A DNA stretch of 64,000 bases from a virus. This document shows, piece by piece, positions 10,726-10,977 of the stretch (positions within the stretch are counted from its first letter, which is position 1; every line of letters starts with the position of its first letter). The stretch is taken from the UHGV virus genome UHGV-0240017. One strand, 5' to 3'. The notes below the pieces were generated by a model. It saw only the letters and a list, made by a program, of their open reading frames with translations, did not search any database and was not told the DNA's origin. The position numbers were made by a program, and so were the translations under genes.

Positions 10726-10757
10726 AAAAAAATTAAGGGCACCCGAAGGTGCCTTAT
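10726..10757 (-). terminator. intrinsic terminator after the small lipoprotein gene
   Basis: AAGGCACC-TTCG-GGTGCCCTT hairpin followed on the minus strand by AATTTTTTTATT. Confidence 0.75.
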
Positions 10758-10760
10758 ACA

Positions 10761-10904
10761 TTAACCACGACCAGTGCACTGTGCAACGGAATTACCGTTG
10801 TCGATGCAAGTGTCGTAGCCTTTGTCGATATCCAGGTACAGGCAACCCAGAACAACAGCGATAACAACAGCGAAGATAGCTTTTTTGTGTTTTACAGAAA
10901 TCAT
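10761..10904 (-). CDS. small secreted lipoprotein (47 aa; signal peptide with lipobox VLGC; 3 Cys in mature part)
   Basis: MISVKHKKAIFAVVIAVVLGC...; AGGAG SD 7 nt upstream of ATG; own promoter-like motif and terminator; below 60 aa so not in ORF track. Confidence 0.55.
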   Translation of the reverse strand: MISVKHKKAIFAVVIAVVLGCLYLDIDKGYDTCIDNGNSVAQCTGRG

Positions 10905-10952
10905 GATATAACTCCTAATTAGGTATTCGATAAATGAGTATTACGTAAACTC

Positions 10953-10977
10953 TCACCTAGGTAATATATATCTGAAA
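10953..10977 (-). promoter_or_regulatory. phage promoter-like element (minus-strand reading TTTCAGATATATATTACCTAGGTGA)
   Basis: 24 of 25 nt identical to 19208..19232; contains TATATTAC, which I recall as the phiKZ early-promoter core; about 50 nt upstream of the lipoprotein ATG. Confidence 0.5.

Follow-up and report, generated by a model that had tools for sequence, protein, structure and literature searches.

A 47-codon member of the SPN3US gp66 family in a new jumbo phage and its predicted periplasmic cysteine hairpin on a variable tether

The locus and its gene

The stretch of DNA analysed here (the window) comprises 64,000 nucleotides (nt) of the virus genome UHGV-0240017. Between positions 10726 and 10977 it carries a small gene that a preliminary description, made from the letters alone and giving no strand, had presented as a stand-alone unit of promoter-like element, AGGAG, open reading frame (ORF) and terminator encoding a lipoprotein of 47 amino acids (aa). 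Each of these elements is present within 10726-10977, on the minus strand, and re-translation of the ORF reproduces the quoted protein, MISVKHKKAIFAVVIAVVLGCLYLDIDKGYDTCIDNGNSVAQCTGRG. The cassette begins with a phiKZ-type early (virion RNA polymerase) promoter motif, TTTCAGATATATATTACCTAGGTGA, at 10953..10977. A 5' leader, as read from the sequence, extends over 10905..10952 and has its AGGAG Shine-Dalgarno sequence at 10912-10916, 7 nt 5' of the ATG. The coding sequence of 47 codons (10761..10904) starts with the ATG at 10904 and ends with TAA at 10761-10763.

The first 20 residues (10845..10904) consist of a basic n-region (K5, H6, K7, K8) and a 12-residue hydrophobic stretch ending in V-L-G; an n-region and an h-region of these kinds had already been described. 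They are predicted to serve as a signal peptide or else to make up about two thirds of a transmembrane anchor, from its N-terminal end. They are followed by the TGC codon of Cys21 (10842..10844), the candidate lipid acceptor of a lipobox-like VLGC, which is not conserved in the family. Residues 27-47 (10764..10826), D-K-G-Y-D-T-C33-I-D-N-G-N-S-V-A-Q-C43-T-G-R-G, represent the conserved, predicted periplasmic ectodomain. The cassette closes with an intrinsic terminator at 10726..10753, formed by a 6-bp G+C stem (GGCACC-UUCG-GGUGCC, 10753..10738) and the subsequent CUUAAUUUUUUU up to 10726.

The protein matches PHROG 8574 over its full length (E 3.4e-23, residues 1-47 against profile positions 1-47 of 47), a profile without assigned function that comprises hypothetical proteins of Seoulvirus, Machinavirus, Wellingtonvirus and Erskinevirus jumbo phages. 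With tblastn the ORF was found in 61 phage records, where it is annotated as a hypothetical protein (e.g., SPN3US_0066). Identity to the PHROG 8574 / SPN3US gp66 family is 45-60%, and family members are 45-50 aa long. A profile search recovers 32 clusters, an exhaustive HMMER search six relatives and the metagenomic protein P0007, and a single-sequence word-index search only a cluster of 98% identity. The phage of the window has no close sequenced relative, and four IMG/VR contigs (151-225 kb) encode the identical peptide. For the comparisons below a family set of 42 distinct sequences was compiled from the phage records and two protein searches, registered on the invariant C-terminal motif.

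The gene order supplies further evidence for orthology. The window shares with SPN3US the homologues of gp62 (head-tail joining), gp63, gp64, gp65, gp66, gp74, the DnaB-like helicase and the major head protein, and the gene occupies the same slot as in SPN3US, between the gp65 homologue and the genes of the DnaB-like helicase and major head protein, in an operon behind an early promoter. Homologues of SPN3US gp67-gp72 were not detectable in the window; compared with SPN3US, the gp66 orthologue is the only detectably conserved gene of the variable early region. Over the last 19 codons, non-synonymous differences from eleven orthologues amount to 0.10-0.20 and the ratio of non-synonymous to synonymous differences (pN/pS) to 0.15-0.43, with pS (0.40-0.86) near saturation. 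The C-terminal codons are thus under purifying selection. Because the ORF is conserved and its pN/pS is low, the idea that it is spurious, which the overlapping plus-strand ORFs at 10712-10864 and 10749-10922 might suggest, was rejected. It is a genuine gene of a new SPN3US-like jumbo phage and the syntenic orthologue of SPN3US gp66, hence a new member of an existing family, which itself is known but uncharacterised.

A pattern scan of the contigs of 185,579 bacterial species genomes yielded no bacterial homologues. Its sole hit, 18 residues (YDRCIFDGNSVAMCTGR) in an Undibacterium metagenome-assembled genome (L025, 2776..3093), lies out of frame inside the gene of a 751-aa membrane protein and was dismissed as a chance match. 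The family is confined to these phages. Searches of Pfam, NCBIfam and the PDB sequences with the protein or its profile gave no meaningful match, and Pfam at E up to 10 returned noise only (MLANA, DUF6672). No discussion of SPN3US gp66 was found in the literature searched.

The 25-nt promoter motif occurs in two exact copies in the window, where none are expected by chance. Both are intergenic and each follows a terminator: the copy treated here comes after the minus-strand gene 11140..11946 (PHROG 8163), which has its own terminator at 11135..11108, and the second, at 19208..19232 on the minus strand, stands just behind a terminator, with an AGGAG-led ORF following about 50 nt further on. In a megablast search of positions 9800-12000 against 50,697 phage records the motif was the only match, found in 48 SPN3US-like jumbo phages of Salmonella, Erwinia, E. 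coli and Proteus. Of the 22 loci fetched, 15 have a 16-nt core of the motif in front of the orthologous operon and in the same orientation; in this short early operon the gp66 orthologue is the first to third gene. The Wellington locus has a variant of the motif with three mismatches.

The early-promoter consensus sequences of phiKZ, 201phi2-1, OBP and N1M2 have been tabulated (PMC7058600 Table 2). The motif of the window carries the phiKZ core TATATTAC and fits the longer 201phi2-1/OBP/N1M2 consensus TTTYARR..ATATTA..GTG (PMC7058600). According to a review of jumbo-phage RNA polymerases, such motifs sit upstream of early operons and are the early virion-RNA-polymerase promoter consensus in every transcript-profiled phage (PMC7598289). 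The early-type promoter of the preliminary description is therefore borne out, as a prediction, by its homology to published phiKZ-like early promoters. That the gene is both real and expressed early we regard as highly probable.

Further observations concern the motif elsewhere in the window. Two degenerate copies, 80 nt apart and with 6 of 25 positions mismatched, are found at 60060-60084 and 60140-60164 (minus strand, core GATATTATCTA.GTGA). The second exact copy follows the terminator of the internal-head-protein gene, and the ORF behind it (18514..19182, minus strand) encodes 222 aa from an upstream TTG or about 214 aa from its AGGAG-led ATG and has no PHROG match.

A conserved leader motif, ATCGACTAT, precedes the start of the gp66 orthologue by 15-30 nt in SPN3US, in Machina-like and Wellington-like phages and in one metagenomic relative (in the fetched loci L001 at 4909-4917, L011 at 1131-1139, L018 at 523-531 and 1123-1131, and L024 at 602-610), and Wellington has it before a second gene of this operon as well. 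Its counterpart in the window is ATCGAATAC.

The terminator hairpin, likewise recovered by a terminator scan, has a free energy of -11.6 kcal/mol (z = -2.5), and 3 of 200 shuffled sequences fold equally well; it is decent, but not exceptional. In Huxley a homologous UUCG hairpin terminator with compensatory stem changes and the same CTTAATTTTTT tail stands right behind the orthologue, and in SPN3US the gp66 stop overlaps the next start (TAATG). The downstream gene of the window (9891..10706, minus strand) starts 20 nt past the T-run and has no promoter motif of its own. It therefore probably depends on read-through of a leaky terminator, and consequently the cassette, for all its own promoter motif, ribosome-binding site and terminator, is not fully stand-alone. 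The 271-aa product of this downstream gene ends in a CxxC...CxxC zinc ribbon (Pfam Zn_ribbon_8, sub-threshold) and weakly matches PHROG 10180.

The neighbourhood otherwise comprises the PHROG 8163 gene and genes for structural and head-tail joining proteins, the helicase and the major head protein. No lysis gene (endolysin, holin or i-spanin partner) was found within about 10 kb on either side, which agrees with the isolation from lysis genes noted earlier, and no receptor-binding protein gene adjoins the gp66 orthologue.

Two other features of the window are recorded here in their own right. Three tandem small-gene cassettes occupy 8690-9730 on the minus strand (ORFs 9423..9593, 9093..9266 and 8708..8923) and encode paralogous peptides of about 56-71 aa; each has upstream a repeated two-hairpin element of about 60 nt (e.g., CTTTATCTTTTCGAAAGAGAAGATAAAG then CAGTAGAGACTGTACCAGCAGTCCCTACTTG) and downstream a GGGGTG..CACCCC hairpin. 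The analogue of these paralogues in SPN3US is the 48-aa pair gp71 and gp72. Long antisense frames are found opposite the major head protein gene (4218..6476, plus strand, 752 aa, against 4158..6452, minus strand) and opposite the internal head protein gene (19283..20593, plus strand, 436 aa, against 19310..20602, minus strand), and both are probably shadow ORFs resulting from codon bias.

The predicted ectodomain and its variable tether

In 33 aligned sequences, including that of the window, residues C33, G37, S39, C43, T44, G45 and R46 are invariant, and Y30, N36 and G47 nearly so (Gly47 is present in about 90% of members), which gives a C-terminal motif C33-x3-G-x-S-x3-C43-T-G-R. The hydrophobic segment keeps its character only, not its sequence, and is the least conserved part of the protein. 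An AlphaFold2 model calculated from the same 33 sequences (mean pLDDT, the predicted local distance difference test, 86.2) consists of a single long helix 4-35, which passes uninterrupted through Cys21, the NGNS turn and a short helix 40-44. The modelled hairpin would bring Cys33 and Cys43 within pairing range. Since the N-terminus carries K/H/K/K and acidic residues follow the hydrophobic segment, the positive-inside rule would place the C-terminal hairpin in the periplasm, the compartment in which disulfides form. We therefore consider an N-in/C-out topology with a C33-C43 disulfide probable. A Foldseek search of the PDB with the model gave no match at E <=0.001, and helical hairpins among the non-significant hits (viscotoxin, crambin, wasabi receptor toxin) were not used.

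Sequences resembling the phage Cys-loop were also observed outside the family. The metagenomic protein P0007 (381 aa) contains, at residues ~165-300, four tandem A-Y-x-x-C-I-G-N-G-x-S-x-x-Q-C repeats. Its HMMER match is borderline (E 9e-4 against 1.84 billion proteins) and its only Pfam signal is a sub-threshold Thionin; the repeats may represent a wider disulfide-hairpin module or convergence.

The tether is more difficult to interpret. The preliminary description had read VLGC as a lipobox that releases a lipopeptide of about 27 residues. We compared the family with a permissive rule (a PROSITE PS51257-type pattern with the Cys at positions 15-35) and with the classic box [LVI][ASTVI][GAS]C. 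The window sequence, in which Gly precedes Cys21, passes the permissive rule, but with Leu at position -2 it does not correspond to the classic box. None of the 42 family members matches the latter, and 17 of them pass the former. A six-frame scan of the window gave 563 ORFs of 30 aa or more, 3 of which pass the permissive rule, compared with 0-7 (mean 3.6) in 20 shuffles, so that the lipobox pattern alone is at chance level.

Cys21 is present in 19 of the 42 homologues. The other 23 have Val (10), Ser (6), Ala (2), Thr (2) or Ile, Leu and Trp (one each) at this position; SPN3US gp66, which reads AFA-V, belongs to the first group. Even single genera are polymorphic: within Machinavirus, ChrisDB and Caitlin have Cys and Huxley, pSal-SNUABM-04 and pEa_SNUABM_43 have Ser, and within Wellingtonvirus, Wellington and Kwan have Cys and pEa_SNUABM_11 has Ser. 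The occurrence of Cys in the hydrophobic segment is confined to this one column, where it is preceded by A/G in 18 of 19 members and followed by S/A/G in 16 of 19. In the non-Cys members position 22 is mostly Leu and position 20 is G/A/S/T in 19 of 23.

This column context counts, as a sequence pattern, for lipidation, and so does the 12-residue hydrophobic run before Cys21, a length typical of signal peptides. Against it count the residues past position 21, which are hydrophobic in Cys and non-Cys members alike, so that uncharged runs extend over 15-22 residues, mostly 18-20, a length that would suit a transmembrane segment (in the window the run is 16 residues long and then followed by D-I-D-K). 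The modelled helix that runs through Cys21 likewise speaks against lipidation. From these patterns, lipidation of the window member appears a little less probable than its absence. In Enterobacteria, Asp at position +2 retains lipoproteins at the inner membrane; as the residue here is Leu and not Asp, the window peptide, if lipidated, would be predicted to be sorted to the outer membrane. Because Cys21 is not a property of the family, the conserved function does not require lipidation.

A small early envelope protein without a link to lysis is thus what remains of the preliminary description, whereas its lipobox was over-read: the permissive pattern is present, but the classic box is not, and with Cys21 in fewer than half of the homologues and hydrophobic residues behind it, the identification as a lipoprotein does not hold in the form proposed. 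More generally, a lipobox pattern in a micro-ORF is weak evidence by itself, since six-frame scans turn it up no more often than chance would and true orthologues differ in whether they have it.

Proposed function and rival readings

The reading we favour, with a probability of roughly 0.4, is that of an early, membrane-tethered and disulfide-clamped periplasmic peptide with an interchangeable tether, which serves in exclusion or envelope modulation. The product would go to the inner membrane, its basic N-terminus remaining cytoplasmic, and its single hydrophobic segment would act as a tether only. The last ~20 residues would reside in the periplasm as a helix, the NGNS turn and a short helix, closed by the Cys33-Cys43 clamp and ending in C-T-G-R. 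The tether itself may vary between a lipid anchor, a transmembrane anchor and a cleaved signal peptide. In the window phage and about 45% of its relatives, which have the [A/G]-Cys site, Lgt, LspA and Lnt could yield a 27-residue lipopeptide bound to the outer membrane, while Val, Ser, Ala or Thr at position 21 in SPN3US and others would imply a transmembrane anchor or a signal peptide cleaved by signal peptidase I.

The conserved hairpin would then be the active part, acting early in the periplasm on a partner common to phages of Salmonella, Erwinia, E. coli and Proteus. Among phages with these four recorded hosts the ectodomain hardly varies, while the neighbouring early genes turn over. Taken together, the predicted early expression, an active part that would face the periplasm and the near-invariance of this part amid gene turnover argue for a conserved partner. 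Such a partner would most likely be located in the entry apparatus of the phages themselves, which would result in superinfection exclusion in the manner of T4 Sp and Imm; alternatively, the envelope protein involved may be one universal to enterobacteria. As to function, exclusion of superinfecting phages or the modulation of some conserved component of the envelope is accordingly the most plausible, with low confidence, and exclusion specifically we regard as a tentative and rather unlikely choice. No description of a superinfection-exclusion factor for SPN3US-like phages was found in the literature searched.

Several points weigh against this interpretation. A lipid anchor in the outer membrane and an anchor in the inner membrane would put the ectodomain on opposite sides of the periplasm, which is awkward for a single partner. 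Nothing ties the peptide to exclusion specifically. Topology, cleavage, lipidation and disulfide are all predictions, and the attribute "early" likewise derives from the similarity to promoters mapped in other phiKZ-like phages. Moreover, the N-terminus of a lipoprotein would not typically continue with hydrophobic residues such as those that come after Cys21 (LYL.I here, SYITL or AIITV elsewhere).

Another reading, which we consider possible but unlikely, is that all members are uncleaved bitopic inner-membrane micro-proteins of N-in/C-out topology, comparable to the 47-aa PhoQ-inhibiting peptide MgrB of E. coli. Cys21 would then be merely intramembrane, and the hairpin would bind a conserved inner-membrane protein of the host (a sensor kinase, for instance, or a component of the divisome or of the envelope-stress response) and modulate it, so that the envelope is reprogrammed early in infection. 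The uncharged runs, mostly 18-20 residues and 22 in the relative P0004, would fit, as would the hydrophobic character past position 21 in both classes and the unbroken helix 4-35 of the model. Cleavage is not universal, for in several non-Cys members position -1 is occupied by a residue that is not small (LAI|V, LLV|S, LLF|L). MgrB itself is N-in/C-out, retains its function when its transmembrane Cys16 is replaced by Ala and depends on two periplasmic Cys (PMC8404706); it passes the same permissive lipobox rule. A single location for all members would also be the most parsimonious solution for one conserved ectodomain. However, kinship in sequence is absent: hhalign gives a probability of 22.7% (about 23%) over 18 columns, all in the transmembrane region, and there is no match to Pfam PF13998, for which reason homology was rejected and MgrB is used here as an analogy. 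Furthermore, small transmembrane regulators usually carry their specificity in the helix, but in the gp66 family no part is less conserved than the helix. The [A/G]-C-[S/A/G] context that recurs at exactly one column looks selected, and the run of the window member is only 16 residues long before D-I-D-K. A further reading, to which we give very little weight, is that the peptide is secreted: all members would have a cleavable signal peptide, processed by signal peptidase II where Cys is present and by signal peptidase I where it is not, with a free or lipid-anchored periplasmic product of ~25 residues. The 12-residue hydrophobic stretch before position 21 has signal-peptide length, position 20 is small in most non-Cys members as noted above, and many of them combine small residues at -1 and -3 (SPN3US clade: AFA|V; Machina clade: TFG|S or AFG|S), but others have no acceptable -1 residue at or near the column (again LAI|V and LLF|L), P0004 has a three-residue insertion that gives its long hydrophobic run, and the residues past the site are hydrophobic.

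The preliminary description had favoured host modification or exclusion by a lipoprotein. Made specific, such a model has a product that is always an outer-membrane lipoprotein and that, like T5 Llp and phi80/N15 Cor, shuts off one particular receptor from within the periplasm, which would prevent both superinfection and the loss of progeny on cell debris. The permissive pattern with Leu rather than Asp at +2, the lipoprotein-like -1 and +2 residues of the Cys members, the automatic name "Lipoprotein" that the Kwan orthologue bears in UniRef, the early promoter motif and the distance from lysis genes are all consistent with it. We nevertheless judge it improbable. The lipobox Cys is missing in 23 of 42 members, SPN3US included, the classic box is absent and the permissive rule is at chance level. 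With its 27 aa the mature peptide would not reach half the length of mature Llp and Cor, no lipoprotein family in Pfam or PHROG is similar, and the gene does not lie beside a receptor-binding protein gene. A receptor-specific block fits least of all since the ectodomain is near-invariant across phages with different recorded hosts. Least credence of all is given to a function in lysis, whether as o- or u-spanin, holin or antiholin, colicin-lysis-like lipopeptide, or as a signal-anchor-release peptide in which Cys21 attacks the C33-C43 bond after release from the membrane in a P1 Lyz-type switch. Precursor and mature sizes of 47 and 27 aa equal those of colicin lysis proteins, the hydrophobic segments contain 25-45% Gly/Ala/Ser/Thr, inside the signal-anchor-release range, and the three Cys of the window member comprise one in the membrane and two in the periplasm, as predicted; but the third Cys is absent in half of the family, so that a three-Cys switch is not the conserved mechanism. 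Besides phrog_8574, PHROGs returned only a weak match to an Rz-like spanin (E 0.042), and the spanin reading was discarded as this match is limited to the transmembrane segment. The early-type promoter, the absence of endolysin, holin and i-spanin partner from the neighbourhood, an ectodomain without proline, the unconserved lipobox and the lack of any Lysis_col, Rz1 or holin match in Pfam at E up to 10 further argue against lysis.

Returning to the tethered periplasmic peptide, a more far-reaching version can be formulated for the whole gp66 family. The family would supply SPN3US-like (nucleus-forming, Chimalliviridae-type) jumbo phages with an early effector aimed at the envelope. In it a disulfide-clamped hairpin of ~20 residues, its tether switched repeatedly in evolution between transmembrane and lipid forms, would block a conserved step of envelope penetration or genome delivery, or else a universal enterobacterial envelope machine. 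We put this forward as speculation and deem it unlikely. If true, no smaller factor for superinfection exclusion or envelope takeover would be known, and the target would have in it a natural peptide ligand. Almost nothing is known of the early action of these phages on the envelope, and the gp66 orthologue points to the periplasm. If the partner were identified, it would show either the means by which one such phage excludes another or a conserved vulnerability of the envelope that a peptide of ~20 residues can hit.

Comparison with known systems

The closest known counterpart is SPN3US gp66, which shares with the window protein the full-length match, the gene slot, the upstream early promoter motif and the C-x9-C-T-G-R tail. 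The two differ in position 21 (Cys in VLGC of the window, Val in SPN3US), in the acidic D-I-D-K after the hydrophobic segment of the window protein, and in what follows the gene, a terminator in the window and the translationally coupled gp67 and gp68 in SPN3US.

The resemblance to MgrB extends to the length of 47 aa, the basic N-terminus, a single hydrophobic segment with Cys in V-L-[A/G]-C, and a tail of ~20 residues, periplasmic in MgrB and predicted to be so here, with two Cys spaced 9-10 residues apart. By contrast, MgrB is a host gene, and its specificity depends in part on the transmembrane residue W20; in the gp66 family the transmembrane segment is what varies.

T5 Llp and phi80/N15 Cor are likewise small phage envelope proteins with periplasmic Cys that are made before lysis, and the window member shares with them a lipobox-like site. 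They show no sequence similarity to the gp66 family, whose lipobox is not conserved and whose ectodomain is near-invariant across phages of different hosts. Mature Llp and Cor are ~60 aa long compared with 27 aa for the window peptide, and llp of T5 adjoins the gene of pb5, in contrast to the gp66 orthologue, which has no receptor-binding protein gene beside it.

Colicin lysis proteins (bacteriocin release proteins) and entericidins are similar in layout: their precursors are ~45-50 aa long, carry the lipobox around residue 20 and give a mature part of ~27 aa. They differ in their invariant lipobox, the lack of a Cys-x9-Cys hairpin and their regulation, and their Pfam families Lysis_col and Entericidin gave no match at E up to 10. 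From Rz1-like o-spanins the family is distinguished by the unconserved lipobox, the early-type promoter and the lack of a partner or lysis gene within the ~10 kb surveyed.

T4 Sp (spackle) and Imm differ from the gp66 family in that no similarity of sequence or fold was found; Sp is a soluble helical protein of ~75 aa and Imm has two transmembrane segments. By analogy, both resemble what is proposed here for the gp66 family, being products of early genes that act in the periplasm or inner membrane against virions of the same group, which would fit a partner conserved among related phages.

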